Source: Candidatus Latescibacterota bacterium (lineage in GTDB: Bacteria; Krumholzibacteriota; Krumholzibacteriia; WVZY01). Taken from it: DNA of 64,000 nucleotides. Both the position numbers and the translations under genes were made by a program. The stretch is taken from the NCBI GenBank assembly GCA_011772205.1, contig WVZY01000057.1, positions 6,190 through 70,189 of the forward strand. The letters run 5' to 3'. Below the pieces are notes generated by a model that did no database searches, was not told the DNA's origin, and was given only the letters and a program-made list of their open reading frames with translations. Positions 1,463 to 23,978 of this stretch are shown here, piece by piece; positions within the stretch are counted from its first letter, which is position 1, and each line of letters begins with the position of its first letter.

Positions 1463-1640
1463 TTCCGGAAGCTGCCTTTTCGTATGATATTTGCGGACGC
1501 GCGGGCGAAAAGCGAGCCGAACCGGAATCATTTGATTGTCGACCTGGCGGGTCTTATCATTTATCATGGAGAAGCGGTAGGGACGAGGTATTCTGCCAAA
1601 ATCCCCCTGCATGATCATTCATTGATTTTTTCCGTAAATA

Positions 1641-1646
1641 AGGAGA
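1641..1646 (+). promoter_or_regulatory. Shine-Dalgarno AGGAGA for Lon-like protease gene
   Basis: AGGAGA lies 5 nt upstream of ATG 1652. Confidence 0.5.
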
Positions 1647-1651
1647 ACCGA

Positions 1652-4078
1652 ATGGCCGCTCTTTCACGTTTAGAGTTGAAAGCAAACGATCTCCGCTGGA
1701 AATGCGATCCAGATAAGCTTGGTTTCGAGACGACGGACGAGCTGACGTGCTGCAGCGAAATCATCGGCCAGGATAGGGCGTTGAACGCCATCAAACTTGG
1801 ACTCGAAGTACGGAGCGAGGGTTATAACATCTTCGTTTCGGGCCTTACAGGGACGGGTAGGTCCACTACCATTCAGCGGCTTCTCCGCGGTATGGATCAT
1901 GGGGATAAAGAGCTTCTTGATATCTGCTATGTGTACAACTTTCAGACACCTGACATTCCGATCTGCATCTGCCCCCCTGCGGGGACAGGCGCGAAGCTGA
2001 AGAAAAACTTGAAAGAGGTCCTTCGCACCCTCAGGACGCACATTCCGAAGGCGTTGCAGAGCGATCCATACAAGGAGAGGCAAAAAGCGATTCTGGAAGA
2101 TGTGAAGAAGCGCCGGGCAGAGTTTGCAGTAGAGTTCGATAAGGCCATAGAGGAAAAAGGCTTCCAGGTTGTTGAAGTGCAATACGGTCCTTTTACGAGA
2201 CCCGAAATCCTTCCCGTGGTTGATGGGACTCCGACCGGTATGGATAAGGTCGCCGCGCTCGTCGATGAAGGGAAGATGTCGAAGGAAGATTTCGAAAAAC
2301 TCCGGGAAGATCACAGCGAGCTCGTTGAGAAAATGGAAGCGTTTCTTGCAAGTACACGCGAGCTGGAAAAGGAATATGCCGAAAGGATCTCTGAGCTTGA
2401 AAAAGAATGTGTTGTTCCTATAGCAAGAATAACGATAGATGAGGCCAAAGGGAACTATCAGGAAGAGAGGATTCTCAATTTCCTGGAAAACATGAGGGAA
2501 TACTTAGTAGACAACATCGATATTTTCAAGACGTCGGAAGATCAGGACGAATCCGACAAGGGTGAAGAAGAAGGTTTCATCGCATTCGAGGTAAATGTAG
2601 TTGTCGATAATGCTCGTACAACAGACGTTCCGGTGATAACGGAAACGACACCGAGCTATGCGAACGTATTTGGGACGATAGAACGGATCAGTGATGCGAG
2701 AGGTGAGTACAGGACGGATTTCACCAAAATTCGGGCCGGTTCGCTGCTGCGGGCAAACGGTGGGTTTCTGGTGCTCAACCTCAATGACCTCCTTTACGAA
2801 CCGGCCGTTTGGCCTGCGTTGAAGCGTGCATTGAAGAACCAGCAGGTCACCATCCAAGGATTCGATGCCTTCTTCATGCTGGCCATCAGCGCTCTGAAAC
2901 CTGAGCCGATAAACATCGATGTCAAAGTTGTTTTGATCGGTGACGCATATTCTTACCAGATTCTTTATAACTACGATGAGGAGTTCAGGAAAATCTTCAA
3001 AGTAAAAGCCGATTTCGATAACGTGATGGAAAATGAAGCAGGAAACTTGGCAAAATACACACAGTTCATAAAGTATATCTGCGACGAGGAAAAGCTTCTG
3101 CCTTTTCATAAGACCGGAGCTGCGGCCCTCGTTGAAGAGGGAGTAAAAATTGCGGGCAGGCAGGACAAACTGTCCACCAGATTCAGTGATATTGCCGATG
3201 TGATCCGGGAAGCGAGCTACTGGGCTGAAAAGGATAATTCGAAAGTCGTCGAAGATCATCATGTGGAAAAAGCGATCGATGAGCGGACGAATAGAGTCAA
3301 TCTCATCGAGGATAAGATACAGGAGATGATCGAAGACGGTACCATTCTACTGGACATCGACGGCGAAAAGATCGGACAAGTGAACGGCCTGTCCGTGTAC
3401 GATCTTGGCGACCATTCCTTTGGAAAACCCGCACGTATCACCGCCGAAGCCGCCATTGGGCGAGCGGGAATTATTAATATCGAGCGGGAAGCAGATCTCA
3501 GCGGAAGGACGCATAACAAGGGAGTGCTGATCATAGAGGGGTACCTGAGGAGAAAGTATGCACAGGACAAACCTCTGACAATGAGCGCGAGCATTTGTTT
3601 CGAACAGTCTTACAGCGGGATAGATGGTGACAGCGCCTCGTCGACGGAGATATACGCGCTTCTCTCCAGCTTGTCCGAAATCCCACTGAGACAGGATCTC
3701 GCCGTTACGGGCTCTGTGAATCAAAAGGGAGAGATACAGCCAATTGGAGGAGTGAATCAAAAAATAGAAGGGTTCTTCGAGGTCTGCAAGGCAAAAGGAT
3801 TGACAGGAAAGCAGGGAGTCATCATACCAAGCCTCAACAAACGGGATCTGATGCTCCGAAAAGATGTTATTAAAGCGATTGAATCAGGAAAGTTTCACAT
3901 CTACGCGATCGACACGATCGATCAGGGTGTCGAGCTTCTTAGCGGCAGGAAAGCCGGCAAGAAACTTTCGAACGGGAAATTCGAAAAGGACAGCGTCAAC
4001 GCGCTGGTCGATGAAAAGCTCAAAAACTATGCGGATCAGATTCGCGAATTCTATGAATCCGAGGAAGAAAAGGGGTAG
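1652..4078 (+). CDS. Lon-like ATP-dependent protease (COG1067, YcbZ/LonB-type): AAA+ ATPase plus Lon S16 proteolytic domain
   Basis: Walker A GLTGTGRST. N-terminal LRW-C-DP...FETTDEL motif typical of the YcbZ family. C-terminal Lon protease domain (DGDSASSTEIYALLSSL, Ser-Lys dyad context). ATG 1652 is in frame within ORF 1484..4078 and preceded by an RBS. Confidence 0.8.
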   Translation: MAALSRLELKANDLRWKCDPDKLGFETTDELTCCSEIIGQDRALNAIKLGLEVRSEGYNIFVSGLTGTGRSTTIQRLLRGMDHGDKELLDICYVYNFQTPDIPICICPPAGTGAKLKKNLKEVLRTLRTHIPKALQSDPYKERQKAILEDVKKRRAEFAVEFDKAIEEKGFQVVEVQYGPFTRPEILPVVDGTPTGMDKVAALVDEGKMSKEDFEKLREDHSELVEKMEAFLASTRELEKEYAERISELEKECVVPIARITIDEAKGNYQEERILNFLENMREYLVDNIDIFKTSEDQDESDKGEEEGFIAFEVNVVVDNARTTDVPVITETTPSYANVFGTIERISDARGEYRTDFTKIRAGSLLRANGGFLVLNLNDLLYEPAVWPALKRALKNQQVTIQGFDAFFMLAISALKPEPINIDVKVVLIGDAYSYQILYNYDEEFRKIFKVKADFDNVMENEAGNLAKYTQFIKYICDEEKLLPFHKTGAAALVEEGVKIAGRQDKLSTRFSDIADVIREASYWAEKDNSKVVEDHHVEKAIDERTNRVNLIEDKIQEMIEDGTILLDIDGEKIGQVNGLSVYDLGDHSFGKPARITAEAAIGRAGIINIEREADLSGRTHNKGVLIIEGYLRRKYAQDKPLTMSASICFEQSYSGIDGDSASSTEIYALLSSLSEIPLRQDLAVTGSVNQKGEIQPIGGVNQKIEGFFEVCKAKGLTGKQGVIIPSLNKRDLMLRKDVIKAIESGKFHIYAIDTIDQGVELLSGRKAGKKLSNGKFEKDSVNALVDEKLKNYADQIREFYESEEEKG

Positions 4079-4084
4079 TCTTGG

Positions 4085-5071
4085 ATGTTGACGCCGGACT
4101 CTCCCGAATCCCTGATAAAGAAGACGGCATACGAAATCGGTTTCTCCCTCGTCGGCATAACTGACCTCTCACCTTGCCCTGAATCCGATAGTGCATTCGA
4201 AAATTGGCTGGAGGCGGGTAATCACGGGGAGATGCATTACCTCGAGCGATGGAAAGAAAAACATTGCAATCCCTCACTTCTTCTCGAGGATGCAAAATCT
4301 GCCGTCTGTGTCGCTTTGAACTACTACACGAAAGCGTTAGCACGAAATTTGGCCCTCGATGGCAGTGATGGAAGGGGTATCTTTTCGATCTATGCTCACG
4401 GCCGGGATTATCACGACGTCATGGGAGAGATGCTCTCGGCCCTTTCGATGAAGCTTGCAGAGCTTTTCCCGGGGTGGCGGTCGGTTGCATGTGCGGACAC
4501 GAAGCCCGTATCCGACAGGGCGTTTGCGATTCGATCCGGTATCGCCTGGCTGGGAAAGAACACGAACGTCATCTCTCCAAAGTATGGTTCTTGGATCTTT
4601 CTGGGAGAGCTGATCACGAATCTCGAAATGACGCCGGATGCACCGCTAGAGAGCCTTTGTAGTGACTGCACGCTTTGCATCGATGCCTGTCCCGCAGGCG
4701 CTCTTGGACAGGAATATAGTATGGATGCCCGGAAGTGCATATCCTATCTCACCATCGAAAAGCGCGGGGAAATACCGAAAGACTTTCACGGTGCGATCGG
4801 TCTCAATGTTTTCGGTTGTGATGAATGCCAGCGCGTTTGTCCGTATAACGCTGTGGCAGTGGAATCGATTTTATTTTCGAGCGAGGAACGAAACCGGATG
4901 ATCGACATGGAGCTTCAACAACTTGCAGAAATAGGGGACAAGGATTTCAAAAAACTGGCCGTTGGAAGCGTGATAAGCAGGTGCGGAACGGAGGGTCTGA
5001 GAAGAAATGCGGCGATCGCGCTAGCCAATATTGCATCTGGACGTTTTACCTCAAAGGGAAAAAAACGGTAA
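4085..5071 (+). CDS. queG: tRNA epoxyqueuosine(34) reductase QueG
   Basis: Two 4Fe-4S ferredoxin motifs (CSDCTLCIDACP, CDECQRVCPYN), YAHGRDYHDV motif, C-terminal HEAT-like AAIALANI. Confidence 0.8.
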   Translation: MLTPDSPESLIKKTAYEIGFSLVGITDLSPCPESDSAFENWLEAGNHGEMHYLERWKEKHCNPSLLLEDAKSAVCVALNYYTKALARNLALDGSDGRGIFSIYAHGRDYHDVMGEMLSALSMKLAELFPGWRSVACADTKPVSDRAFAIRSGIAWLGKNTNVISPKYGSWIFLGELITNLEMTPDAPLESLCSDCTLCIDACPAGALGQEYSMDARKCISYLTIEKRGEIPKDFHGAIGLNVFGCDECQRVCPYNAVAVESILFSSEERNRMIDMELQQLAEIGDKDFKKLAVGSVISRCGTEGLRRNAAIALANIASGRFTSKGKKR

Positions 5072-6488
5072 AAGTCGTTCCTTCCCCCTCTTTGCTCTTG
5101 CAGTAGATCTGCCCGCCACAGCTCGACAGTATCTTTTGAGAAACAGTCAGTCCCAATCCCTTCCCCTTCACCCCGACGTCTGGAGAATTGGACGCCTGCT
5201 GGAATGGCTCGGTCAATAGCGGAATCTCAGAGGCCGGTATGCCGATTCCCCCATCCGTAACTTTGAATACGACATAAAGTTGCCGGATTTCTGGTGGCTG
5301 AATATCTGATTTTCTCGGACCTATTTTCGGGGTGTCGGAGGGCTCTACCATCAATTCGAGATCGGTCATTTTGTTGTATTCGGCAACGCGCGCTTCGAAT
5401 TGCTCGTTCCAGTCCGGCAGCCAGATCCCATCGATATCGCTAACGGGCGCGCGGGGTTTTTCTTCGAATTCCAATACGACTGAAGCGGATTCGTTCGAGA
5501 ACTTTATCGCATTATCGATCAAATTATTGATGACTTTACGAAATTTAGCAGGCGTCAGCTTCAACTGAGGTAGCACATTGTTTGGGATTTCTATGGTTTC
5601 GATGGATATTTTCCTCTCGGCTGCTATGAGGGTATAGGTTGAGACGACCTCATGAACAATGCTCAAAGGGTTCCAGTCGGTGAGGGGCATGCTCATGTCG
5701 TCAAAATAGGCTTCATTCAAGTCCAGAAGAGAGGTAATGAGATTTTCCAGGCGCGCGACGGATTCGGTGACCCATTTGGCAACTTCACTCTTATCGTCTT
5801 GTAATTCGAGAGCGGAAAGTCCGCTCTTTATTACAGTGAGAGGCGTTCGGAATTCGTGAGTGATCCGGCTCATGATGTCGGTTCTAACGTCGTTCAATTT
5901 TTGGAGCTCTGTCAAAGAAAGCTTGGCATTGAGGAACAGCCTGGCGTGATTGAATGTCATCGCTGAAACAGCGCAGAATGAGTGGAGGAGCGTCGCATCG
6001 GATTCGGAGTAGGACTGAGATGATATCTTTTTCCCAAGAAAAACTATCCCCAGCAGCCTTCCCTTGATATAGAGAGGTGATAAAATTGCAAAGCTATCCA
6101 ATAGTGGTTTGATATTGTTTTCTGCAAGGATGTCTTTTGGCAGATTCGACAGAGCGATTGGGAAGGGGGTTGCATTCAAATATGAAACAAAGGGGGAGGC
6201 TAAGCCAATCACAGGGAAGTTCTTCAAATCAACCTTCCCAAAGCTCACTGCAGGTTCGAGAACGCCGATATCCTCTTTGGCGGAGTAATAGCAGCTTTCG
6301 CCCGAAAGAAACTGTCCCATAATGGTCAACAAAAATTCTCTCTGGAGTGTTTCGAGATCCAATGAACTCCCGTACTTGTTCAAGAGAGATATGAGAGAAT
6401 CGGTCAGGAGTCGCTGTTTCTGGTACTTATTCTTCCATAGTGCCACTTGGGTTCGCGAGCTAGATTCTTTTGTGCTGGTCTTGCTCAT
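5046..6488 (-). CDS. GAF-domain sensor histidine kinase (HisKA plus HATPase_c with a long insertion)
   Basis: H-box HEFRTPLTVIKSG. N-box IDNAIKF. G-boxes DGGIGI and GKGLGL. N-terminal roughly 190-aa GAF-like region. Convergently overlaps queG by 26 nt. Confidence 0.8.
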   Translation of the reverse strand: MSKTSTKESSSRTQVALWKNKYQKQRLLTDSLISLLNKYGSSLDLETLQREFLLTIMGQFLSGESCYYSAKEDIGVLEPAVSFGKVDLKNFPVIGLASPFVSYLNATPFPIALSNLPKDILAENNIKPLLDSFAILSPLYIKGRLLGIVFLGKKISSQSYSESDATLLHSFCAVSAMTFNHARLFLNAKLSLTELQKLNDVRTDIMSRITHEFRTPLTVIKSGLSALELQDDKSEVAKWVTESVARLENLITSLLDLNEAYFDDMSMPLTDWNPLSIVHEVVSTYTLIAAERKISIETIEIPNNVLPQLKLTPAKFRKVINNLIDNAIKFSNESASVVLEFEEKPRAPVSDIDGIWLPDWNEQFEARVAEYNKMTDLELMVEPSDTPKIGPRKSDIQPPEIRQLYVVFKVTDGGIGIPASEIPLLTEPFQQASNSPDVGVKGKGLGLTVSQKILSSCGGQIYCKSKEGEGTTFTVFFPLR

Positions 6489-6512: not shown

Positions 6513-7640
6513 TTACACCTTGATCGTGTTTTTCAGCTCTTCGATGCTTCCAACGATCACGAAATAATCGCTGATGTTGAGAATTTCGAAGATGTCGCTA
6601 ATCTCTGAAGGAATTTTCATAAATATGAGATCTCCACCCCGCTGCCTCAGAGATGAGACAGTGCCCAGCAATATTCCTATTCCGGCACTGCTTATGAATG
6701 AAACTTCCGAAAAATCAATGATTATAAACTTCGTTTCGCTGTTGAGAAGGTTCGTTAAGTATTCCTCAACATTCTGTGTAGAGACCGAATCGATACTACC
6801 GATCAATTTGACGATTGTGGCGCCCTCAATATCGCAGGACTCCGATTTAATCGAAAACGTGTTCATACGAATCCTCCTTTGTTTCTCGTGTTGCTCGTGA
6901 GCTCCGCTCTCTTTTTTTGCGACTTTGAAAGATGTGACGTTCCAAGATCCGAGACGTTTGTATTCCGTATCAACACTCAGTTGGTTCATTATAAACAGGC
7001 CAAGGCCTCTAGTTTCTCTTTCTTTGATTTTATCGCTTATGTTCACATGTAACTCGGTTTTGGTAAGAAATACATCTGCATTATCTCTATAGCGGACAGT
7101 GACATAAGCATCGTTTGCTGTTATAGAGAGGACTATTGAAGGTTGATCTGTTTGGAATGTTCCATGCTCGACCGTGTTTATAGCGAGTTCGTAAATGCAC
7201 AACTGAAGTCGTGATAGAGTGCTGTCATCAAGTTCCAGGGCTCGCCCAATGAGGGTTACGGCCAAATTTATTTCGGCAAGGGCTGCGCTGAGGTCCAAAA
7301 AGCTCAAGCAATATTCAATATTATTCGATCTGTCGGATTCTCCAGCTGCCACATTCCGGTATTCGAATCGTGTCGATTTTGACATTTTGAGCTTGTTGCC
7401 ACTTTTACTGGCTTCACTGACATCCTTTGATCCAGTTTGTTTTGAAATTGTCTTGATTGCTTCTTGCGATCGTTTCGATAACGTCTCAGAGTAAAGTATG
7501 TCTATATTGTTTATGCCGATATCCTGGCATATTTTTATGTATCTGGTGAGGCGCTTGGTTGAACGCCGGTCGATCTCGCCATTGATACGGATTGCTATAG
7601 AACCGTCTGTGAAGTTGATATCCTCAATGATCATCAGCAA
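6513..7640 (-). CDS. Fusion protein: STAS-like domain, RsbW/SpoIIAB-type anti-sigma serine kinase (HATPase), and C-terminal STAS anti-sigma-antagonist domain
   Basis: Central LCIYELAINTVEHG (N-box) and RGLGLFIMNQL (G-box). C-terminal STAS with FISSAGIG (phospho-Ser motif). Confidence 0.7.
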   Translation of the reverse strand: MLMIIEDINFTDGSIAIRINGEIDRRSTKRLTRYIKICQDIGINNIDILYSETLSKRSQEAIKTISKQTGSKDVSEASKSGNKLKMSKSTRFEYRNVAAGESDRSNNIEYCLSFLDLSAALAEINLAVTLIGRALELDDSTLSRLQLCIYELAINTVEHGTFQTDQPSIVLSITANDAYVTVRYRDNADVFLTKTELHVNISDKIKERETRGLGLFIMNQLSVDTEYKRLGSWNVTSFKVAKKESGAHEQHEKQRRIRMNTFSIKSESCDIEGATIVKLIGSIDSVSTQNVEEYLTNLLNSETKFIIIDFSEVSFISSAGIGILLGTVSSLRQRGGDLIFMKIPSEISDIFEILNISDYFVIVGSIEELKNTIKV

Positions 7641-7644
7641 GGAG

Positions 7645-9210
7645 CTAAACCTCCATACTTATACGCCTTGACGGCATTTTCATCTCAGCGCTCAAAGCGA
7701 GTAGCGTAATATCGTCTGTTTGAGGGGAGGATTTTCTGAAATTCGCCTCTGCTTCCACTAGCTTTGATACCAGCGCTTTTGCCCCATCTCGAGCGTAGTA
7801 TTTGCAGATTCTAAGAATGCGTTCAAATGTGAATTGCGCGCCTGTTTCATTTTTCGATTCGTTGAGTCCGTCAGTATACCCCAGTATAAGATCCCCCGGC
7901 TTCAGGTAGGCGCGATACTGGGTAAGTTGCCTTTCGAAAGTGGCATCGGCCAATATTCCCAACGGCAGACCTTTCATTTTCACGAGGCGGCACGTGCCGA
8001 TTGAATGCTCATATATCAACAGGGGATTGTGGCCTGCATTCGAACAAGCCAGTTCTGAGTTGCTCTCATCGAAAATTGCAAATAGAAGCGTAACAAACAT
8101 GTTTTGCTTGGTCGTATTCACAAGGGATTCGTTCAATCTTTGTATAACCTCTGTTGGGGCAAGTCCTTTCAATGCGAATTCCTGCACCATGATCTTTACC
8201 ATCGCCATGACAACTAGCCCGGGAACGCCTTTTCCTGAGACATCTGCCATCACCAAAGCGGTCCTGTCATCGTCTATCGGAATCACATCCATGTAGTCGC
8301 CACCCACTTCGTAAGCGGATTGGTAATAATGGCCTATCTCGAAACCACTGGGTTCGCGGATTTTTTTGGGAAGCAACGTGCTTTGGATCTCCCTGGCGAT
8401 CTCGAGCTCTCTTTCCATACGCTCTTTGATGACGAGTTCACGCTGCGCCGCTGCTATCTTGGATGCCATTTCGTTGAAAGATGAAGCTAGCATGCGCAGC
8501 TCATTCTTGGCTTTTATATGTATTTCAGCCTCGAGATTCCCTTCTCCAAATTCGCGAACGCCTCGCATCAAGATATCGAGAGGACGCGAAATGCGTTGGA
8601 AGAGCAGCAGTGAAAAAACAATGCCCAGTAGCAAAGCTGCTAGAGCACAAATCAAGGTGATCGTAATAGCCCGGGTAATGGAATAGTGGAACTCTTCTTT
8701 CGAATATAAGAGATGCACCTTTCCAACAGGTATGTCGAGACTTTTGACAGGCGTCGTAAAGAAATAGTATTGATCATTCTGATACAGTTTATCACCCGGC
8801 CCAAGATGCACCGATCGCACAGGTTGAAATCCTTTTATCTTAAGGCGGTGAGGTGTTCCGATGTTTTGAAGAGTGTTGTCGCCTTGGATGATGCCATTCG
8901 CATCTGTTATTACAACGGAGACGATATCGGAACTTCTATTTGTTAATTGGCTGAGCAATGGGTAAAGCTCGAATTCGGGATCGGGTCTTAGCAATGCTTT
9001 AGTACTGGAGAGAGCGATGTTTTTCCCCTGAAGCACCACAGACCTCTCGATTTCATTTTTCAATATCTTTTTTTCGTGGATAATCAGCAAATAGCTGATC
9101 GAAGCTACTGTAATACCCAAAAGGAATATCGTCCCAAAACACATTTGAGTCTTGAGAGATCGGAAATGGCTTATGCCGAGAGACGGCCTACTCATTCGAG
9201 ACACCACCAA
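7645..9210 (-). CDS. Membrane-bound sensor serine phosphatase (two TM helices, periplasmic domain, HAMP, PP2C/SpoIIE domain; RsbU-like)
   Basis: Two hydrophobic helices flank a roughly 150-aa extracytoplasmic segment. HAMP (NLEAEIHIKAKNELRMLASSFNEMA). PP2C motifs (GGDYMDV, ADVSGKGVPG, GYTDGLNE). Confidence 0.8.
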   Translation of the reverse strand: MVVSRMSRPSLGISHFRSLKTQMCFGTIFLLGITVASISYLLIIHEKKILKNEIERSVVLQGKNIALSSTKALLRPDPEFELYPLLSQLTNRSSDIVSVVITDANGIIQGDNTLQNIGTPHRLKIKGFQPVRSVHLGPGDKLYQNDQYYFFTTPVKSLDIPVGKVHLLYSKEEFHYSITRAITITLICALAALLLGIVFSLLLFQRISRPLDILMRGVREFGEGNLEAEIHIKAKNELRMLASSFNEMASKIAAAQRELVIKERMERELEIAREIQSTLLPKKIREPSGFEIGHYYQSAYEVGGDYMDVIPIDDDRTALVMADVSGKGVPGLVVMAMVKIMVQEFALKGLAPTEVIQRLNESLVNTTKQNMFVTLLFAIFDESNSELACSNAGHNPLLIYEHSIGTCRLVKMKGLPLGILADATFERQLTQYRAYLKPGDLILGYTDGLNESKNETGAQFTFERILRICKYYARDGAKALVSKLVEAEANFRKSSPQTDDITLLALSAEMKMPSRRISMEV

Positions 9211-11203
9211 GCTTCTCTATTTCACCTTTGGTCTTCATCAAGAAACGCTTAGCCTTGATATTGTTTGGTTCGATCTTCAGAGCCTTTTCCCAGCTTTCGA
9301 TAGCTTTATCGTATTGCTCCTGAGAGTAGAATTGCATTCCCACGAGAAGATATGCCTTTGTTAGTATGTTCGATACATCGTGAAAATCGGGATCAATGGT
9401 CCACAGCTCCAATAGTGAGCGAGTCGCTCTATCGAAATCACCTGCTTCAAAATAATCCATGCCTCTCTTATATCTCGTCTCCATCGCCGCAAGATCGACA
9501 TGTGGCTTTTCGCGCTCGACGGTGTCAGGCTTTCGTGGTATCTTCTGCTGCTCCTTACTTTGCGCCTCTGCGAGTGCTTCTTTATGCTTTTGCCTCAAGA
9601 TCTCGATCTCGGACATGATCATCTGGTCATTCGGTACATACATGAGAGCTTGCTCCAGGGCTTTGATGGCTTCATAGTACTCTTCCTTGCTCGCCAATGT
9701 CCTGGACCGCAGAGTGAGGCGCTGCTTGACATTCGCAATATTTACTTGAGCTTTCTGTCTGTACTCCTGAGCGAGAATATTCGTCGGCTGAATCTTCAGG
9801 ATCTCTTCGAAGGCAAGGAGAGCGTCCGAGAACCTTTGGTATGCGTACAGGTCGATCCCTTTCCTGAGGAGCTGATCGATTAGGAGCGCTTGATCTCGCG
9901 ATTCGGATAACCTCTGCTCGCAGGCTCGAATATGAGATGCTGCTGTCGAATCACCGGGGATGCTCATGAGCGCCTGCCTGAAATGATAGATAGCCTGCAA
10001 GCAGTCCGCTTCTTTCATGAAAGCGAGACCTTTGTTCAGGGAGATGTTGTATTTCGCTTTGACCAGGCGGTCGCGGGCATGTTCGTTTTCGGGATCCCAG
10101 TAAAGAACGATTTCGTATGATCCAATTGCATTTTCGTAATCTTTTTGTACAAAGAATCTGTCAGCTTTCTCGATGGAGCTGGTTATTTGTTCCTGCTCGA
10201 TCGAATCCATTTTTCTATTTATCTCGGCATTGATCTCTTCCTCAAGTTCTCGCCTTGCTTTTTCTCTCGTCTCATCCGTGGAAAGGCCGAATGATACCGA
10301 TAGAGAAATACGATGATTCGATCCGAGGTCTTCGTCTCTAAACGCATAGTCCACGGTGAGCATCCGATATGCCGCGCCGAGTCCGAAGGTAGGTGTCGTA
10401 TCGTCGATGCCCGCGCGCAGGAAGAAGCGGTCGAGTATTGTAATTTCCTCCCCGAACCTGAAAGAAAATGGGGAATACCTCGGATTTACCAAATCGATGG
10501 AGGTGATGAAGCTGACCTTGTCGAATTCTGATAGTGCGGATACTCCGAATACCACCCGCATTGGATCGGAGACTTTTTCCTGATCGAGTTTGACGGAAGG
10601 TTCTATGATGTTCTGTATGGCAAGGCCTTCTCGGAGTTCTTTGATGAAGCGCGTATTCTTGATCTGTTGGCTCGATGCTAATCCGACATCTATACCGACG
10701 CCTGAGCCGCTGAGTTCTCCGAAAGATTGATTGTCTATTTTCAAGTTAAAGCCGGCCGAGAAGCCAGAATGCACATTCTTGGCATATCCCAGCAAGATGC
10801 GGGTCTGGCTGTTTTTCAAATCACTTGACAATAGCTGATTGTTATCGTCTCTCTCTTCTATCCCGCTGATGTCCAGTCTGAGAATGCTTATACCCAGAGT
10901 GCCATAGTTCAGGGTGGGATGTGTGTAACTCACGGTATGGTAAAGTGACTTCGAGTCGAAAAGAACCGTACGGAAGAACTGAAACTGCTTCCACTTAATA
11001 TCGGCCAGCAATGCGGGATTGAAATACTGCACGGCGGGATCTCCCTTGAGGCTCGTATAGGCGAGTCCCATGCCGGAGGCCCTGGCTCCCACTCCGATAA
11101 CAAAAGGCAGCTCGGTCCCGTAAGAGTCGGCATGAGGCGCCCTCGGCATAGCTGCTGCCAAGATGACGCTGAGCCAGGCGACGCAAAGAGAGCGCTTTTT
11201 CAT
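9188..11203 (-). CDS. Outer-membrane PorV/PorP(SprF)-like FadL-superfamily beta-barrel fused to a C-terminal TPR-repeat domain
   Basis: Start ATG at 11203 (MKKRSLCVAWLSVILAAA signal peptide) overlaps the stop of the giant upstream gene by 4 nt (ATGA). N-terminal about 300 aa carry GARASGMGLAY...DPAVQYFNPALLA, characteristic of the PorV/PorP family. About 400 aa of TPR/Sel1-like helical repeats follow. Confidence 0.6.
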   Translation of the reverse strand: MKKRSLCVAWLSVILAAAMPRAPHADSYGTELPFVIGVGARASGMGLAYTSLKGDPAVQYFNPALLADIKWKQFQFFRTVLFDSKSLYHTVSYTHPTLNYGTLGISILRLDISGIEERDDNNQLLSSDLKNSQTRILLGYAKNVHSGFSAGFNLKIDNQSFGELSGSGVGIDVGLASSQQIKNTRFIKELREGLAIQNIIEPSVKLDQEKVSDPMRVVFGVSALSEFDKVSFITSIDLVNPRYSPFSFRFGEEITILDRFFLRAGIDDTTPTFGLGAAYRMLTVDYAFRDEDLGSNHRISLSVSFGLSTDETREKARRELEEEINAEINRKMDSIEQEQITSSIEKADRFFVQKDYENAIGSYEIVLYWDPENEHARDRLVKAKYNISLNKGLAFMKEADCLQAIYHFRQALMSIPGDSTAASHIRACEQRLSESRDQALLIDQLLRKGIDLYAYQRFSDALLAFEEILKIQPTNILAQEYRQKAQVNIANVKQRLTLRSRTLASKEEYYEAIKALEQALMYVPNDQMIMSEIEILRQKHKEALAEAQSKEQQKIPRKPDTVEREKPHVDLAAMETRYKRGMDYFEAGDFDRATRSLLELWTIDPDFHDVSNILTKAYLLVGMQFYSQEQYDKAIESWEKALKIEPNNIKAKRFLMKTKGEIEKLGGVSNE

Positions 11204-14200
11204 CGGAGCACCCCTACTTTTCGTTTGAGGGTCGATTGTTGGCCACCCACAGCCCGAATCTCGAGGACGAGGTAATAAACTCCGTTGTTCACCACGTCTC
11301 CCTCGTCGTTTCGTCCATCCCATACGACATCCTGATGGAGCCCTGGATTCGAGAGTTTGTTGGACAGCAGCGTCTTAACCGGTGCTCCCCAAAGCGTGTA
11401 AAGCTCCAAAGTCACATAGGACTGATTGTCCAAGTAATAAGTGATCCTTGTTTCCTCTCTTCCAGCAGCAAATGGATTGGGATAATTGGTGAAGCCTTCT
11501 TTGTTGTCCGCACCGAGGATGTGCGCGGTCCCGCTCTTGAGTGGGTACCCCGTTCCACCGATCGTTCCAACCGACATCACCCCGCTCGTAGTTGCGTCTT
11601 CTACTGCAACGGAAGCGCTGTCCTCAATGACGAACCTGATATTCTCTCCGGCTGATTGTGTGCTAACATCCACATCGAAGAACAGCGTGTCGGTTGTGCC
11701 AGCGGTAACAACAATCAGTCCCGCTGGAATCGTGATCGATATCTCGCTATTGGTGATCTGACCGGTGGCGATCACGCTATCCTTGCTGGACAGATACGCG
11801 CCGGAAAGGAGTTGCGAAGGATCCAAAATTCGTCCCTTTATATTTTCGATTCTCACAGTGAGGGACCGGAATTCGATATCCGTTGAACCTTCCGGGTTAC
11901 CGTTTTGGATGAGGAGATCAAAAGCAGGAATCCCGGGTTGCACGGTGCTGATGTTACTCGGAAGTTTGGATTCCAGTCCGCAGAGGGCGAGGCTGCTCGG
12001 CAATCGTAACGCTCCGGGATTGGTGACGAGCGGGAAAGAGCCCGAGATCTCATAGATCCTGGAGCGGTCGTTCGAATCGAACAGCACAAGCTGATCTTTG
12101 TTGATCCGCATTTCGAATACTGCCGGCGTGTAAGAGCTTTTGGTATCCAGTACGATCTGCAGTGTCTCGGATGCCGCAGGGGCAACGGTGAGCGGAGGAT
12201 TGAGCGTGAGCTCGGCGATTGCGAAGCTGCTGCTCAGGGAGGAGTTGGTGGATAAAGTGTCGCCATTGTGCAGCAAACGCAGGTTGCTGAAATATCCTCC
12301 AGGGAAGAGCGGCGTTCCGCCAAGTTCTGAGAAGATGACGGCAATAGAGTCGAGCTCCACTGATGATGCCGATGAAGTATCTGAGTGGGTTAGGGCGATA
12401 TCCATTACGGGAATGGATTGCATCGACGGCAGGAGCGTCGGCGGGAGCGTGCTGAGATGTGAAACGGCCACTCCGGAAGCGGGAGTTTGGAATAACATCA
12501 TGGAGGATAACAACGGGAAGCCAGGAGAACCGCTTTTGGGAACTACCTTGATCAATTGGCCCGAGTTGAAGTCACGCGCTATGATGGCGAGTGGATCGTT
12601 CACGCTGAGATAGAAACCATCCGTCAGGGGAAATGCCTTCAGATCCACCAGGATATCGATATATTTTTCGCTCTGAGGCTGAAGAACGAGCGGGCTTCCT
12701 AAATTACACACAAGCTGGTTACCGGTTACCGGAATATCCTCGGTTGTATAAATGACTGAGCCCGACGTTGACAGGGATATCTTGCGTATGACTGCATTCG
12801 GGGGAATAGTTGCACCCGTTGTATCGTAAAAGCTCAGGGTTAGACGCGTCAGCAGCTCACTGGCTGATGTGAGATCACCACCGTTTAGCAACTCAAGCTG
12901 TAGTGGGGCGACGTTGTCCTGAGCAACGTTGGCGAAAACAGTGTCCGCTGCTGCGGCAGACACGAATAGTGTTTCGGCGGGTGCGTTGATATCGATATCG
13001 TTTGTTACCCATGGGAAAGACGCCTGCGAGGAAAGCGTGACGGCGGCGGAATCGTTCGAATCGATCACCCTGATATCATCGATTTGATCGATCCTGATTC
13101 TGAATGATGTGAATGCGGCACTATCTGAAAGCTGACAGAAAGCATCCAGAACGAGATCGTCCCAAGGTAAAACCGAGATGGACGGCTCGACATCCAATGT
13201 CACTGGATTCGTAGAAGAATCCACGAGCACGAACGTATGCTGGCCACTATTCGGATTTATGAGCGATAAGCTTTTGAGAATACTATTTGGTGGTAGAGGA
13301 GAAGCGGCACCATCTTCGAAGCTCAGAGTAAGTTTATCAAGCAAGGTGGTAGCGGAAAGGCTGTCGATAACGTCGTGTTTGCATTGAAGCTCGAACAGAT
13401 GCACGTTTTCCTGGCCGCGATTGGCACTGGTAGGGCTGAGATCGTTGAGAGCGATAAAAATATCGTGAGGTCTATTTTGGATTTGAGCGTCGTTCGAACA
13501 TGAAAATTCGGATATTTCCAAACTATCGCCGGTGAAAGCATTGCCGCAGAAGCTGATGTCGCCTGTGGATGCGGCCACATAGGTCCAAATGACCGTAGTA
13601 TCGGTTCCCGCTGGGAGATCGAATGAGCTGGCGGACGGACCGGTTTGGTAATTAACGACACCGGAGCCGGTTGTGCTTATGATCGAGGGTGAGATTTCTG
13701 ACAGAGGTGTTGCCCCCTCATTTCGAACCCTCATGGAAAGGACAATACTTTGACCCATGCTATAACTTGAGCGATCGGTATGGAGGGACGTGAGCAGGGG
13801 ATCTGTCGATATTGTTTGCTCGAACGGATTGACAATAGCAGCATCGATTGGACCGTCGTTTCCAGACGCCACCTGGATGCTATTAGTAGGGATTCTTGCC
13901 TGGAAAGTAGATTCGTCGGTAGCTACATTCGATACCGAGAACGTAACGTAGCATTTGAGACCCGATGACGGAATCGCCTCAGACAGTCCCGTAGGATTCT
14001 GCCAAGCGCTTCCATTCCAAACGAGGATGGAGAGGAATCGATCATCGGAAGAACTGAATCCCAAGGGATTCCCTCCGTCTTCCGCCCACAGCTTCAAAAT
14101 TATAATGTCCTGACCTGTCACCGCTGTCCCATTGTTCTGCACTGCGACAGACTTGAGGACATCAGTCAGCGTTCCGTTTGACGGAATAGTAAATGCAAGG

Positions 14201-17200
14201 GCAAGAACATCATCTTCGCCAAGGGCGGCGCGGTAAGGGGGAACCGGATCTGTGTTAATTTGCGCGGCAATCATCCCATCGGTGAAGTCCACACCGGGAG
14301 AATTGATCGGGAATTCACCTTGGATTTCGATCGAGCTGCTGGATAGGGTGATGTCAGCGCTTGAGTTTAGCTGAAGATTGAAGCTGACAGAATCCCTGAC
14401 TGCAAGGATCGCATCGTATGAGACGAACAGGTAGGTTATCCGTTTCGGACTCAGAGCCAGTCCGAGTGTATCGAGAGTGTAATAGTTGTTGTCGTGATGT
14501 CCAATTGCGAGGAGGCTGTCTGATGCAGGATCGAACAGTCCGTTCGAATCGATATCAGCAAAAGCATGAACCACCTCGATCTCACTGTTCACAACGGTTC
14601 CGGTCTGGAAAAGTTTGAGCGTCTCGACATTGAACGATGACGAATATCCGTTGTAAAAGCCTATACCAAAGTTGAGTTCATTCTTCGCGCCGGGATACAC
14701 GTATTTGTCACCTACGGAATAGGGGAATACCGTGAGCTCATTGGGCTTGGGTATCAATTGGATCGAGGGATTGATAACGGATGCATCGATAGGACCATCA
14801 TTTCCGGACGCCACCTCAATGCCTGAAGTAAGAATCTCGAACTGGATCGATGCACTGGTGGAGTACGTCGTATGGAGATCGGCCGCGGCGAAAAATCTCG
14901 TACGCTGCCCGCAAGGCATGGTGAGCGGTACGGCCATTGCTGGCATCAAATAAGTTTTGCTGCCCATATCAACAAAGTCGCCGAGGTAGCTGTCGTCACC
15001 CGAGCCTGTGTCGAATGTTCCATTGCCTCCATCGGCATACAAAGCCAGACGAGAGAAATGTTCCGAGTTCGCACTGCCCTGGTTGAAGATCTCGATGGAT
15101 TTCAACGTATCCAATTCGTAACCATTTGCCGGGATCGAGAAGTCGAGGACGAGAATATCGGTAATCTCAGTAACGATGAGACTGTCGGCAGTCGGAAAGA
15201 CTTTGATCTGATGAGCCAGCATGCCATTTATAACTAGCGGCTCCGGCGTTTCCAAGGGGAAGAACCCGACAATTGGCTTAGATGCGTCGAAATGCAGTGA
15301 TGAAGCGGATGGTATTTCTATTTTGAGCGTGTCGCCGTCACGTGCGCATGAGGAGTCGATGTCGCATGCAAAGAGTAGGTGGATGGTTTCACCGGCTGAG
15401 AGTGTCTTGGTGATGTTGCGAGCAACAAGAGATCCTCCCGAGAAAAGGAGGCTATCAGCCAGCAATTGATCCCATGCGTCTACGTTCCCATTGCCGTCGT
15501 CCGAATAGATCTTCAATCGCGCGATCTCTCCGTCCAGTTCGGCCGGTGCACCTGCGCCCGACGACATGTTCGACACGGACAACGAATCCAGCGTAAGGCT
15601 CTGCAGGGTGTTGTTATTGATGCTCGCCATTAAAATCGAAACATCCGCTGCACCAGGACGCGGCCAGCCGGCAGGGATCGGCTGGTTGGCAACTTCGATC
15701 TGTTCGATTCTTTTGATCGTATGAGTGGAATCTCCTGCTATTAGATAGTCGATGGGGCCGTCGTTTGCTGACATCACTCCAACGCCCTCGATGGGGATGG
15801 CCGGCCTGAAATGGTCTCCATCGTTTGCGTTGGTCGAGATGTCTGCAACGACGTAGAACTTGCGCGCAGCGCCCACAGGGATTTTGATCCCTGATATCTC
15901 GAAGCGGTCACCCGAGAAAACCATATTTCCAAGGGGGAGATCGACTCCAGGATCGAATACAGCATCCCCGTCATCCAGATAGAGCCGCAGCGCGCTGAAA
16001 TCTGCCGGAGAAAAATCTCCTGACACATCCATTACTGATAGTGCAGTGAGCGTATCCGCCTCATAACCGTTCTGCGGAAATGCAGCAGTGAGGAGCAGGT
16101 TGTCGGAAGCACCCGAACTAAGGGTGTCCAGGCTCGAAGGCGTCACAGAGATCTGATGCGAGACCATTCCGTCGATAACGAGGTACCCATAGGAGTTGAC
16201 GGGGTATAAAGGAGAAAAGTCCTCCAGTACATCGGTGCTATCCGTGAAAACGACATCGAAGGGAGATAGCAATATGGCATCCAGCTTGTCGCCGTCGCGG
16301 GCAAGAAAAGAGTCGATCGTCACTGCAACAAAGAGGTAGCTGGTATCCCCAGCAGGGATTGCCAATCCTCCGTTGATGGCGAAAGTAGTCCGCCCCGAAA
16401 CGAAGAAGGAAGTCGAAACGAGTGTGTCCGCTGCGGATAGCGTCCTGCTGGAATCCACATCATGATATAAAAAGAGCGAATCGAACTCGGCATCGAGTTC
16501 AAACTGCCCCCCTGGGCCGATAGTTGCATTCGTGACGATCAACGTGTCGAGGTAGCGGCTGCTTGAATATTGATTGTGGAATTCCAAAGCGAGAACCGCT
16601 TCATTGCTTGTTCCTGGATAAACGTCCTCCACGGATAGTGGAACCGCCTTGATGATGATCCTCGGGATATCGATATCGATGCTGTTCCGCCCGGCCGTTG
16701 ATATCGTATCGCTGTACGCTTTGCCATAGTCGTCCGTTCCGGCGAAGGTGATCGTGAGGTCGTATGTCGCGGGTGCAACAATTCCGGTTGGGACGGGAGA
16801 AGGGAGGAATGCGATGGTGAAATCATCCGCAGAAGGCGGTACATAAGTTGGATTCCCGAGCCTGGCCTGATATACTTTTGATCCATCCGTAAAGGAGATC
16901 GTCGAAGCGGTATCGAGCATCACGCCCACATTGGTCGAGTTGTCCATCCCGATGCGAAGCGCGAGCTGAGGATCCTCCACATTGGCTGTCGATGGGTACA
17001 GAGAATTGGGAGAATCTCTTAGAATCACGCGTTCTATCACGGTCACTTCGACGGAATCGCTGTTGTTGATAGTGTTCGGGTCTTCTTGATCAACGTTCGA
17101 GATCGAAGCGATGTTGGTGATCATGGAATCCACCGTTCCAGAATCGACGGTGGCCGTGATGATCAGCGTGGCGGTATCAGCGCCCGCGAGAACGCCCACG

Positions 17201-20200
17201 GTCCAGATCCCCGTGCCGCTAACATATGCCCCCTGGCTGGTTGTATCTGAATGGTATGTAACTCCCTGCGGAAGGAGATCCGTTACCTCGATTACTGCGG
17301 CGGTGTCCGGGCCATTGTTTATGAGCATGACGGTATAATTGAGAGAGTCGCCTTCATATGGCATCGTGACATCGGCTGATTTCACGATCTCGAGATCGGA
17401 GCTTTGAACGACGATATCGAACGACGCGATGTTGTTCGTCGTGTCTGGGTCGGCCTGATCGGCACCTAAGATTGTGGCGATATTTGTGATCGTTGAAGCA
17501 CCCGTTCCGGGATTGACAGTAGCGGTGAGCAGTAGAGTTGCGGAATCAGAGGAGGCCAGTGTGCCCACCGCCCAGACGCCCGTAGCACTCACATAGCTGC
17601 CCTGACTCGTTGTATCGGATTGGTACGTGATCCCAGCGGGCAAGAGGTCGGAAACTTCAATTCCCGTCGCAGTGTCCGGCCCCAGGCTGGCCAGCTTGAT
17701 GGTGTAAGTGAGCGTATCCCCAACACTTGGTGATGGGTTGTCGACGATCTTAGAGATTTCGAGATCCGCTCCTTGGACGGTGATGACTGTTGTGTCAATG
17801 TTGTTGATTGCATTCGTGTCAGGTTGATCGGAAGCTGTGATACCGGCAACATTGGTGATCATTGAACCGGCCGTTCCTGCATCGACGGTCCCATTGATTA
17901 CGAGTGTCGCGATTGCGGAATTCACGAGGGCGCCCACCGTCCAAAGCCCCGTACTGCTCGCGTACGTACCCTGGCTGGGGGCGTCGGCTAGATATGTCAC
18001 TCCCGCCGGTAGGAGGTCTGTTACTTCTACGCCCGTGGCATCGTCGGGTCCGTTGTTGGTTACTGTAATGGTGTAAGCGAGGGTGTCCCCTTCATTGGGT
18101 ATCGAGTCGTTCACCGCTTTTGCAATTGACAAATCCAGTGTTGCGGCATCGCGGAAGGCCACATAAAAATAAGCGTCGCCGTTTCTATTGACATCGTTGA
18201 GAGCTCCAATCTGGAAACCATCGGGCAGGAAGGTTTGAATGCCATCACTGAAAGCCGCACCGGGATCCATCGGCAGCGTATTGTCACCGGGTAGAGAAGA
18301 GGGTCGATGAACGGCCGGAGAGCCATTCGGACCACGCGTGAGGATCATATAACGGGGCTGCAGGCCAACTCCTGTAATATCTCGATTGTCCAACCCATTC
18401 CCCAGATACAGATTTTCGGCAATTCTGCCTGGTATTCTGTTCCATGCCACGCAGTGGTGGGCGATGCCTGTTTTATTGACCGTATTGTGACTGCCAATTT
18501 GGAATCCGGTTGGTTCGAAATTCTGTATCCTGTTGGTTCTTTCGTCGCTTGACTGGAAGGGTAGGCTTGCATCAAGCGGTTCGGAGGCAAACCGCTGCAT
18601 CGCATCTTCGCCATCCTCGCTCATTATGATCACATAAGCAGGGGAAAACCCGACGCTGCCGATGCTCCGGTTGTCCGTGCCGTTACCAACGTACGAATCC
18701 ACCACCATCTGCCCCGGAGCTGCGAGAAATGCGGTCCAGTAGTAGGTGACTCCTGGCGCGTTCACCTGTGCTCCCGAGCCAATCCTGAATCCATTCGGCA
18801 TAAAGGTGGTAATGAGATTGCTCAGCAACGCTGAGTTTGTCCCAAGCTCCTTGGAAACATCTCCGACCATCGTGGACGTCCTGGCCACCGCTGGTTCATC
18901 GTTGTCTCCTTTGATGATCACGAGATCTGGCCAAAACTGGAGGCCTGTTATCGGATGATTGTTGGATCCATCCCCCAGATAGCTGCCCGTGACTATCTGG
19001 AAGTCTTCATATTGAACAGAGATGTTGGCGGTGTCGAAGTTGTTGGCACTATTCGTATCTGCCTGATCAACGGCGATGAGTGTTGCCGTGTTGACAATGA
19101 TAGTCCCCAGCGTTCCCAAGTTCACGGTGGCGACAATATCCAACGTTGCGCTACCGCCGTTAGAGATAGCACCGACAATCCACCTGCCGGTAACGCTGCT
19201 GTAACCACCTTGGCTGGGAGTATCGGAGACATACGTAACTCCCGCCGGGAGCAGATCCAGGACTTCGACGCCTGTCGCATCGCCGGGGCCGTTATTTGTC
19301 AGTGTGACCGTGTAGGTGACGGTGTCCAATTCGCTGGGAACCGGATTATCGACGATCTTGGCGACCGCCAGGTCGAGGGCTGGTGCGGTGCGGAAAGCCA
19401 CCCAATAGAATTTTTCTCCATTATCATTGACGGCAACGTCCGAACCAATTTGGAACCCATCGGGCAAGAATGCCTGGATGCTGTTGCTAAGCGCGCTGTT
19501 CCCCGGAATAAGGAAACAAAAATCTCCTACGAGGGAGGCGGGACGATGAAAAGCCGCGTAATTGCTGCCGTCATGCTTGATTAGCATGTATTCGGGTTGA
19601 AAACCGACTCCGGTGATATCCCGGTCATCGGATCCATCTCCCGTGTAGTCATTGCCCGCTATTTTCCCCGGCGATACTTTCCAAGCCGCGTAATGGAAGG
19701 CGACCGACGATTGGTTGACATTTGGATGTGACCCAACCTGGAAGCCGCTGGGTTCGAATGCCTGGATCAAGTCGGGTTCTTCGGCGGCTGGAGTGAATTG
19801 TATGCTTCGATCGCCTGTCTGTGTGGGGAATCGCTGAATGGCCTGGCGTGGCGATTCACTCATTACGATTACGTAATCAGGTTGGAATCCGACGGTCGGG
19901 ATACTCCGATCGTCACTGCCATCACCAAGATAAGATCCGACTGCCAGCTCGTTCGGTGCTGCTTTGAACGCAATCCAGTAAAAGTCAATCCCCGGCTCGT
20001 TGACTTGGAAATCCGATCCAATCGTGAAGCCGTCGGGGTCCAGCGATTGAATTCTATTGCCCACTAGGCCTGTTCCGGCTCCGAGTGCTTTCGAAGTATC
20101 ACCCATCATGCTGGATGAGCGCGTGATAGTGGATTCGTTGTTATCTCCTTTGATGATAACGAGATCGGGCTTGAAGCCAATACCTGTTATAGGGGTGTTA

Positions 20201-23180: not shown

Positions 23181-23351
23181 TCCTCCTCAACTGTGCGTTT
23201 CCGCTTGGGTGTGTTGTGCATTCTTGTGGTTATGCGGCAAGCTTACATTGGGCAGCGAGAATCCCGGCCACGTTGTCGCTCTTCACTACTGGAGTTCCAC
23301 TGCCGGAAAGCTCTCTCTGATTTTCGGACTGAGCGGCGCTTGACGAGGCAG

Positions 23352-23978
23352 TTATCCCTTGGAGATTTTTCGGATGAGATCGTTGAATATCTCCGATGAG
23401 GCCTTTGCGATCGTCTTGTGAAGGCTGTTTCCATGGCTGTCCATGGTGACCACGGCGTCGAAGTCCTTCACCCGGATGACCCAGAACGCTTCGGGAACTC
23501 CAAACTCCTCCTTCATATAGACGTCGATCACATCGACGACCGAATTGGCAAGGAGACTCGCAGCACCTCCGACGGCGTGCAGGTAAACGGATTTGAATTT
23601 CTTGCACGCCTCCAGCGTCTGATCTCCCATTCCCCCTTTTCCGATAATCCCGCGGACGCCGAATTTCTCGATGACGTGCGATTCGTATGGTTCTTCTCTG
23701 CTACTCGTCGTGGGGCCTGCTGCGACAAAACGATATTTCCCGTTTTCCTCGGCAACGACAGGGCCGCAGTGGTAGATCATCCCGTCTTTGAGCACGGAGG
23801 AGAGCTTGTCGTAGAGGTCTTTCTCTTCGGGGGCGGGGGACCGTTCGATGAAGTGTTCGATGAGAAATTTATGCGCTGCATCGCGCGCCGTCACCATGAC
23901 CCCCGAAATCTTCACGACATCCCCCGTTTTCAGTTCCGAAATCTTTTCAGCGCTTACCGGTAATTCCAATCTAGTCAA
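23352..23978 (-). CDS. fumB: Fumarate hydratase class I (Fe-S hydro-lyase, tartrate/fumarate subfamily), beta subunit
   Basis: IYHCGPVVAEENG, GIIGKGGMG motifs. 8-nt overlap with the alpha-subunit gene. Confidence 0.8.
   Translation of the reverse strand: MTRLELPVSAEKISELKTGDVVKISGVMVTARDAAHKFLIEHFIERSPAPEEKDLYDKLSSVLKDGMIYHCGPVVAEENGKYRFVAAGPTTSSREEPYESHVIEKFGVRGIIGKGGMGDQTLEACKKFKSVYLHAVGGAASLLANSVVDVIDVYMKEEFGVPEAFWVIRVKDFDAVVTMDSHGNSLHKTIAKASSEIFNDLIRKISKG

Follow-up and report, generated by a model that had tools for sequence, protein, structure and literature searches.

A PorV/PorQ-family barrel with a C-terminal TPR arm in a conserved four-gene module of Latescibacterota-type bacteria

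The 64,000-nucleotide stretch analysed here (the window), positions 6,190 to 70,189 of contig WVZY01000057.1 in assembly GCA_011772205.1 of a Candidatus Latescibacterota bacterium, contains at 9188..11203 on the minus strand a gene whose single open reading frame (ORF) of 671 aa joins a PorV/PorQ-family β-barrel to a C-terminal arm of helices and tetratricopeptide repeats (TPRs). Our analysis showed that such barrel-TPR proteins are a distinct, unstudied subfamily of the PorV/PorQ family with an added domain and a new conserved context, being encoded between a protein that ends in a special C-terminal domain (CTD) and a membrane phosphatase followed by further signalling genes. With a probability of about 45%, we place the protein in the outer membrane as part of a conserved envelope module of four genes, in which the barrel anchors the CTD protein and the arm couples to the sensor domain of the phosphatase. 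The gene context suggests an undescribed link between the cell surface and cytoplasmic signalling in uncultured Latescibacterota-type bacteria. Coordinates without a locus name are window positions on the minus strand, except where the plus strand is named.

The barrel, the arm and their fusion

An AlphaFold2 (AF2) model of the barrel-TPR protein, built from an alignment of 55 homologs with a mean pLDDT of 82.7, showed the order of a signal peptide, a plug at residues 27-70, exactly 14 strands at residues 72-305 and then a helical arm. The plug and the β-barrel (10286..11125) were also outlined by the NCBIfam model NF033709 and by Foldseek. The plug carries the GARAxGMG and NPA motifs, residues 37-67 reading GVGARASGMGLAYTSLKGDPAVQYFNPALLA and matching the GARAxGMG...QYFNPA signature, so that the motif quoted in the original prediction is present. 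The PorV/PorQ family model NF033709 scored 100.9 bits against a cutoff of 90 (E 1e-28) and was aligned as a full model (residues 36-305 to model positions 9-326 of 326), a match far beyond chance. The equivalog models within the family were not reached, as the PorV model NF033710 scored 31.3 bits against a cutoff of 250, the PorQ model NF033711 42.6 against 220 and the PorV2 model NF052325 59.3 against 325, and the Pfam PorV model gave a sub-threshold 13.6 bits. The protein is a member of the PorV/PorQ family and not an ortholog of PorV, PorQ or PorV2. The original prediction had grouped it with PorV, PorP and UPF0164 together, and the PorV/PorQ part of this grouping was borne out. The other two parts were not, because none of the 23 NCBIfam families that matched at E <= 1 was a PorP/SprF model (the HMMER filters drop most matches above about 0.1), and Pfam UPF0164 (PF03687) reached 15.5 bits against a gathering threshold of 21.4, over residues 32-107 only. 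A precomputed UPF0164 match is present in a few homologs.

Comparison with solved structures also favoured PorV. When the profile of the 55 homologs was searched against the sequences of the PDB, the sole barrel matched was the Flavobacterium PorV 6h3i_F (E 3e-8), and the top Foldseek matches of the model were the PorV chains 8gl6_F and 6h3i_F of SprA translocon complexes (E about 5e-11, TM-scores of 0.63-0.68), whereas FadL, TbuX and TodX lay below PorV with TM-scores of 0.45-0.50. The earlier assignment of the N-terminal domain to a FadL-type barrel of this group was thus supported by the family model, the profile match and the fold comparison. The superfamily fold and the NPA motif of the N-terminal hatch are common to FadL and TodX, with N62 invariant and P63 nearly invariant here, and they would fit a reading in which a small hydrophobic molecule passes through the barrel as through a FadL-type channel and is handed by the arm to the Cache sensor of the phosphatase, the CTD protein being unrelated to what the barrel does. 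A parallel for this reading exists in Treponema pallidum, whose FadL-like proteins TP0548, TP0859 and TP0865 have a presumptively periplasmic C-terminal three-helix bundle with one TPR motif, described by the authors as novel among FadL proteins (PMC8407342). A C-terminal helical extension with a TPR motif is common to both, but the treponemal one is small and the arm here is about 360 aa, a CTD/phosphatase context is not described there, and the UPF0164 score of the window protein is sub-threshold. No other characterised barrel of the superfamily with such an extension was found in the literature searched. The channel reading is made less likely by the better match to PorV, together with the lack of any match of the window protein to Pfam PF03349 (Toluene_X, FadL/TodX), and by the invariant neighbour, the CTD gene being always upstream and translationally coupled; we regard it as highly improbable.

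The arm (9206..10279) was recognised both by the Pfam TPR models, with TPR_2 at 74.9 bits and TPR_1 at 62.4 bits in the C-terminal half, and in the AF2 model, where it consisted of a 44-residue helix (residues 309-352), TPR-like hairpins (356-540), a disordered linker (541-571) and canonical TPRs (572-666). The C-terminal half had been described as roughly 400 aa of pure TPR; the TPRs are there, but the length and the purity need correction, as the arm comprises about 360 aa of helix and TPR with one disordered linker. An even number of strands in an outer-membrane barrel, here 14, puts both termini in the periplasm, and the arm is therefore periplasmic. Over 19 loci, the mean identity was 45% for the barrel, 44% for the distal TPRs, 31% for the proximal repeats and 15% for the linker. 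A match of residues 297-392 to Myxococcus GltC (NCBIfam, E 9e-4) was judged too weak for use.

The fusion of barrel and arm is real. More than 70 database proteins of 650-680 aa were aligned end to end with the window protein at 40-63% identity, the named ones coming from metagenome-assembled genomes (MAGs) of Latescibacterota or Krumholzibacteria and bearing the labels "PorV/PorQ family protein" or "TPR repeat protein". A search of 1.84 billion cluster representatives with a barrel-only profile returned at least 316 clusters (50% identity) at E<1e-30; among the best 150 representatives, almost all were 600-730 aa long and came from independent assemblies. The distant members that were sampled contained the C-terminal TPRs, and their alignment with the window protein, at 22-30% identity, was full-length. 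Overall, the TPR end could be aligned across 22-63% identity, the alignment was unbroken over the junction of barrel and helix, and the AF2 model was confident on either side of it. The rarity implied by the original prediction was not found, as the family is large and already bears the NCBI label "PorV/PorQ family protein".

These data refute the view that the fusion is an artefact of two genes joined by a frameshift or an assembly error, the probability of which is practically negligible given that a single ORF of about 665 aa recurs in the 70-odd homologs and in nearly all of the top 150 representatives. Entries of an artefact-like kind do exist in the family. In L017:4713-7126 and L027:4728-6721 the barrel-TPR gene is split into two ORFs, which may reflect a frameshift, an assembly error or a real variant. 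One protein of 1259 aa (P0145) has barrel, TPR, sCache, HAMP and SpoIIE in one ORF; it was rejected as evidence of a larger fusion and is usable only for adjacency. It retains the first transmembrane helix of the phosphatase, and both its junction and its C-terminus look frameshifted. Such a fusion is topologically impossible because the transmembrane helix would come after the periplasmic arm.

The barrel-TPR gene overlaps both of its neighbours and is thus coupled on both sides. Its start codon (ATG at 11203) and the stop codon of the preceding cargo ORF (TGA) overlap as ATGA, which confirms the translational coupling to a CTD-bearing giant protein proposed from the sequence earlier, and the signal peptide MKKRSLCVAWLSVILAAAMPRAPHA begins at the same position. 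A longer version of the ORF starts at ATG 11323; since this alternative ATG lies inside the preceding gene and ahead of the signal peptide, 11203 is taken as the real start. At the other end, the ATG of the phosphatase gene at 9195 lies 8 nucleotides inside the 3' end of the barrel-TPR gene (ATGAGTAG), an overlap absent from the original prediction. An identical protein of 671 aa is also recorded in the NCBI assembly GCA_012975005.1 (contig JABAOC010002625.1, 201,808 bp). A scan of the operon for promoters and terminators gave fewer sites than were found in shuffled sequence.

Gene order and neighbouring proteins

Hidden Markov models built for the purpose, one each for CTD, phosphatase and kinase-STAS protein, were used to scan the loci of related proteins, and a fixed order was observed: a CTD-ending protein, the barrel-TPR protein, an sCache-HAMP-SpoIIE phosphatase of about 516 aa, and HATPase_c_2 and STAS domains, either fused or split. 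Among 36 loci of Latescibacterota and Krumholzibacteriota (27-63% identity) at which the barrel has a TPR arm and the downstream sequence could be read, about 35 kept this order, and the pairing of TPR-fused barrels with CTD proteins, for which a survey of related genomes had been proposed, is therefore recurrent. Seven loci retrieved by exact-protein look-up had one gene order. Full-length barrel-TPR matches (27-56% identity) were present at 21 genome loci, all of which had a CTD ORF directly upstream and, wherever the contig continued, the phosphatase and the kinase-STAS protein downstream; the same pattern was seen in 11 further metagenome loci. The four genes of the module are tightly or overlappingly spaced, with the phosphatase overlapping the barrel-TPR gene in most loci. 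Several modules can be present per genome, each with its own cargo, with two in the complete CP070677.1 and three in one MAG.

The cargo gene of the window (11200..20823) encodes a secreted protein of 3207 aa with a signal peptide, CBM96, DUF7483, many DUF11/CLIPPER repeats and a terminal CTD; the ORF list gives 3209 aa from GTG 20829, and the public gene call of 3207 aa corresponds to ATG 20823. No C25 sortase domain was found in this protein. Its CTD of about 100 aa (11203..11502) runs as FTNYPNPFAAGREETRITYYL...VVWDGRNDEGDVVNNGVYYLVLEIR...TLKRKVGVLR up to the stop codon, and its best NCBIfam match was the C-terminus of the PorU model (E 3.5e-7). A fragment bearing the CTD of the module has the NCBI name "T9SS type A sorting domain-containing protein" (T9SS, type IX secretion system). 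No other element of the module was conserved as highly as the CTD, whose mean identity over the 19 loci was 55% despite the differing bodies of the proteins, which ranged from 301 to more than 3200 aa and varied in domain content. Giant adhesin-like bodies are the rule, but one paralogous module has a CTD protein of 301 aa that is little more than the tail, and a giant cargo, as the original prediction had it, is accordingly not required. A search with the CTD profile returned mostly fragments at contig ends, and the small complete candidates (L047 and L048) were on long-read contigs with many apparent frameshifts.

The conservation of the CTD and the minimal protein of 301 aa are in line with another explanation, in which the phosphatase sensor has the CTD as its ligand. 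Unsecreted or recycled CTD in the periplasm would bind to the sCache domain and report the secretion load, and the arm would only sequester or present the CTD. A precedent comes from Porphyromonas gingivalis, in which the CTD of the PorV-bound PorA activates the inner-membrane sensor kinase PorY from the periplasm (PMC12152298; the PorA-PorXY-SigP pathway is also described in PMC7712824). In both systems, a sensor of the inner membrane that has a periplasmic domain is linked to a PorV-associated CTD protein, but the sensor there is a histidine kinase and not a PP2C phosphatase, PorV lacks a TPR arm, and the genes do not form a single operon. As this explanation leaves a permanently fused arm of 360 aa unexplained, and giant adhesin-like bodies predominate among the CTD proteins, we consider it unlikely.

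The gene that follows the barrel-TPR gene (7645..9195) encodes a membrane PP2C phosphatase of 516 aa with a first transmembrane helix, a periplasmic sCache/PDC domain, a second transmembrane helix, HAMP and SpoIIE, the last two being matched in Pfam (SpoIIE at 159.7 bits). The sensor domain (residues 41-175, about 135 aa; 8671..9075) was predicted by AF2 from a 5-sequence alignment to have a PDC/sCache fold (pLDDT 82), and is proposed as the site that the TPR arm would contact. In Foldseek, its model was closest to the extracellular domain of WalK (TM-scores of 0.61-0.64), followed by the PDC domains of CitA and DcuS, and homologs of the phosphatase carry PF17203 (sCache_3_2). Mean identity over 19 modules was 40% for the sensor versus 44% for the catalytic PP2C domain, and a homolog search with the sensor region returned only 4 proteins.

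Next on the strand is an RsbW/SpoIIAB-like kinase fused to an RsbV/SpoIIAA-like STAS domain (6513..7640), with Pfam scores of 45.6 bits for HATPase_c_2 and 72.3 bits for STAS. The phosphorylatable serine is retained in the STAS domain, where FISSAGIG aligns with FMDSSGLG of SpoIIAA. Kinase and STAS are two separate genes in L007/L008 and L009. In L009:9737-12082, phosphatase and RsbW-like kinase are in one ORF, which may be a frameshift, an assembly error or a real variant. Judged by their domains, the downstream genes are a canonical partner-switching set of the RsbU/RsbW/RsbV type. The last gene on the strand, after a gap of 24 nucleotides, encodes a HisKA/HATPase histidine kinase (5046..6488), which was also present in L001 and not in L002, L004 or L006, the last of these having a GAF protein in its place; the histidine kinase is a module member in the closest relatives only.

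Relatives of the barrel that lack the arm were seen in other settings. No matches to the phosphatase or RsbW were obtained at about 32 loci with a TPR-less barrel from Calditrichia, Eisenbacteria, Effluviviaceae, Wallbacteria and other MAGs. In L061:7-1958, the special CTD is paired with a barrel of 51% identity that stops immediately behind the last strand; the TPR arm and the phosphatase are both missing, this locus having lost them. The barrel-only relatives of Calditrichia sit right after porU-like genes (C25 peptidase and CTD; 316 bits to the PorU model), and the module therefore appears to be an elaborated form of a pair in which a CTD protein is held by its cognate barrel. These pairs of a porU-like protein of about 1700 aa and a stand-alone PorV-family barrel (L031-L039 and L046, e.g. 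L034:4734-10954) represent the classic porU-porV arrangement outside Bacteroidota. The Eisenbacteria barrels of L040-L044 (e.g. L040:9824-11386) are 521-542 aa long, with 160 bits for NF033709 and 114 bits for the PorQ model, and have a C-terminal extension of about 200 aa without a Pfam match or resemblance to the TPR arm; their upstream neighbour encodes a protein with two FlgD_ig/CHU_C tails and their downstream neighbour a BamD/YfiO-like TPR lipoprotein.

Proposed coupling of the arm to the phosphatase sensor

Docking of the TPR arm to the phosphatase sensor or to the CTD of the cargo, as raised in the original prediction, would fit the conserved operon. In the scheme that we favour, the upstream protein would be exported and held at the surface by its dedicated, uncleaved CTD in the cognate barrel, by analogy with PorU-PorV, PorZ-PorQ and the structures of PorV with a CTD, and the conserved distal TPRs of the periplasmic arm would contact the sCache domain of the phosphatase. 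The PP2C activity would then change with the occupancy, load or loss of the surface protein, and this activity in turn would set the phosphorylation state of the STAS serine and switch an output. The scheme draws on the absence of the phosphatase from L061 and from the other loci with a TPR-less barrel, on the complete partner-switching set, on a sensor domain about as conserved as the catalytic one, and on the precedent of PorA and PorY. The direction of such signalling could be outside-in or inside-out.

A different role for the arm has to be weighed against this coupling. Periplasmic TPR domains are thought to handle cargo or to dock machinery or cell wall in Slam, PgaA, BcsC and BamD, and TPR domains on outer-membrane barrels are a recurrent theme of export. 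The arm may likewise handle cargo as a periplasmic receiver of the upstream protein or of its CTD, or it may dock the barrel to the secretion machinery or the cell wall; the phosphatase would then sense a separate ligand with its Cache domain and be co-transcribed for regulation only. Faint profile matches to TPR_Slam, BamD and PgaA, observed in the window protein or its homologs, are consistent with this role, as are the usual binding of small molecules by Cache/PDC domains and the presence of CitA and DcuS among the fold matches of the sensor. Moreover, the tie of the special CTD to the TPR form is as strict as that of the phosphatase. However, CTD-protein/barrel pairs without a TPR arm exist in the porU-porV pairs of Calditrichia, the Eisenbacteria loci and L061, and the arm is thus not required for the partnership of CTD and barrel. 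In addition, the phosphatase gene is kept at loci with as little as 27% identity and in most cases overlaps the barrel-TPR gene. We regard a cargo-handling arm as rather unlikely.

Several observations weigh against the coupling of barrel, arm and sensor. In L056:1244-4965, the CTD gene and a full barrel-TPR gene are followed by a DEAD-box helicase gene instead of the phosphatase, which is also what a cargo-handling arm would allow. The barrel is compact in the AF2 model, with 234 residues for 14 strands and short predicted surface loops, so that a CTD-binding surface like that of PorV is not evident. The CTD of the window scored 20.4 on TIGR04183 against a cutoff of 23 and 23.5 on FlgD_ig against 27; the paralogous CTD protein of L002 reached 23.6 on TIGR04183, above the cutoff. 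None of the T9SS core genes (SprA/Sov, PorU, GldKLMN) was seen within the 64-kb window. Furthermore, co-occurrence cannot separate a TPR-sensor contact from a TPR-CTD contact because the CTD, the arm and the phosphatase travel together, and for the same reason cargo handling and the CTD as ligand stay serious rivals.

An extended form of the favoured scheme, which we hold to be possible but somewhat doubtful, would make the module a trans-envelope sensor of a kind not described before. A giant surface protein held by its CTD, in a barrel wired through the TPR arm to the Cache domain, would turn contact, load or loss of the surface protein into a partner-switching signal, and the multiple modules of a genome, each with a different ectodomain, would form a family of surface-contact receptors in Latescibacterota and Krumholzibacteriota.

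Known systems, flanking genes and significance

Among characterised proteins, the closest solved structure is PorV (LptO) of the T9SS (Flavobacterium johnsoniae 6H3I and 8GL6; P. gingivalis). In both proteins a 14-strand FadL-like barrel has an N-terminal plug and is encoded directly after a CTD-bearing protein, as in porU-porV. In contrast, characterised PorV has no C-terminal arm of 360 aa, and the barrel here is the compact one with short loops; the upstream gene here lacks a C25 sortase, and several copies occur per genome, each with its own cargo. The PorQ-PorZ and PorU-PorV pairs of the attachment complex resemble the pair proposed here in that a cognate barrel would stably hold a protein via its retained CTD, but the known pairs have neither a TPR arm nor a signalling cassette. 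SprB-SprF and other pairs of type-B CTD and PorP-like proteins share with the module a giant, repeat-rich surface-protein gene followed by a dedicated barrel gene (PMC9143113), and differ from it in that the barrel here is not PorP/SprF-like and the CTD appears to be of type A / FlgD-Ig type.

The signalling half of the module resembles RsbU/SpoIIE partner switching, including SiaA-SiaB-SiaC of Pseudomonas aeruginosa, in its HAMP-PP2C protein with a periplasmic sensor, its HATPase_c_2 domain and its STAS-type serine, but the cassette here is tied to a barrel/CTD-protein pair, and kinase and STAS are usually one polypeptide. Slam also combines a periplasmic TPR domain with a 14-strand barrel and is encoded beside the surface protein that it serves. 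In Slam, however, the TPR domain is N-terminal and not C-terminal, the barrel is of the DUF560 type and not PorV/PorQ, and the substrates are lipoproteins, not CTD proteins. Literature searches returned no paper linking PorV-family proteins to partner switching, or Latescibacteria to the T9SS.

Other genes of the window were noted around the module. Convergent to the module, at 1484..5071 on the plus strand, are genes for a LonC/LonB-like AAA protease and for epoxyqueuosine reductase (queG); this LonC/LonB-queG synteny is kept in L001, L002, L004 and L006, with topoisomerase VI A/B genes beyond it in three of them. Directly upstream of the giant gene are genes for aconitase and a split class-I fumarase (21240..24849), and fumarase or aconitase is also found upstream in L001 and L006, probably as plain synteny. 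The sensor of the chlamydial RsbU reportedly binds intermediates of the tricarboxylic acid cycle. A DsbD-like protein is encoded at 41261..43114, with 512 bits to the NCBIfam model of the "rhodanese/DsbD fusion-like selenoprotein TsoB", below its cutoff of 805 bits.

The PorV-type barrels known from the T9SS of Bacteroidota are stand-alone proteins that shuttle or anchor CTDs. The proteins analysed here form a large unstudied branch of the PorV family that has a TPR arm and is genetically locked to a CTD protein and a PP2C partner-switching cassette. For annotation, it follows that a "PorV/PorQ family protein" or "TPR repeat protein" of about 665 aa beside an sCache-HAMP-SpoIIE gene belongs to this distinct subfamily, and that such proteins are not PorV orthologs. 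If the proposed contacts are true, the module would provide a four-gene system for studies of CTD-barrel recognition outside Bacteroidota. It would also extend the recent idea, drawn from PorA and PorY, that the CTDs of the T9SS double as signals, and would be a compact example of a surface protein signalling across two membranes.

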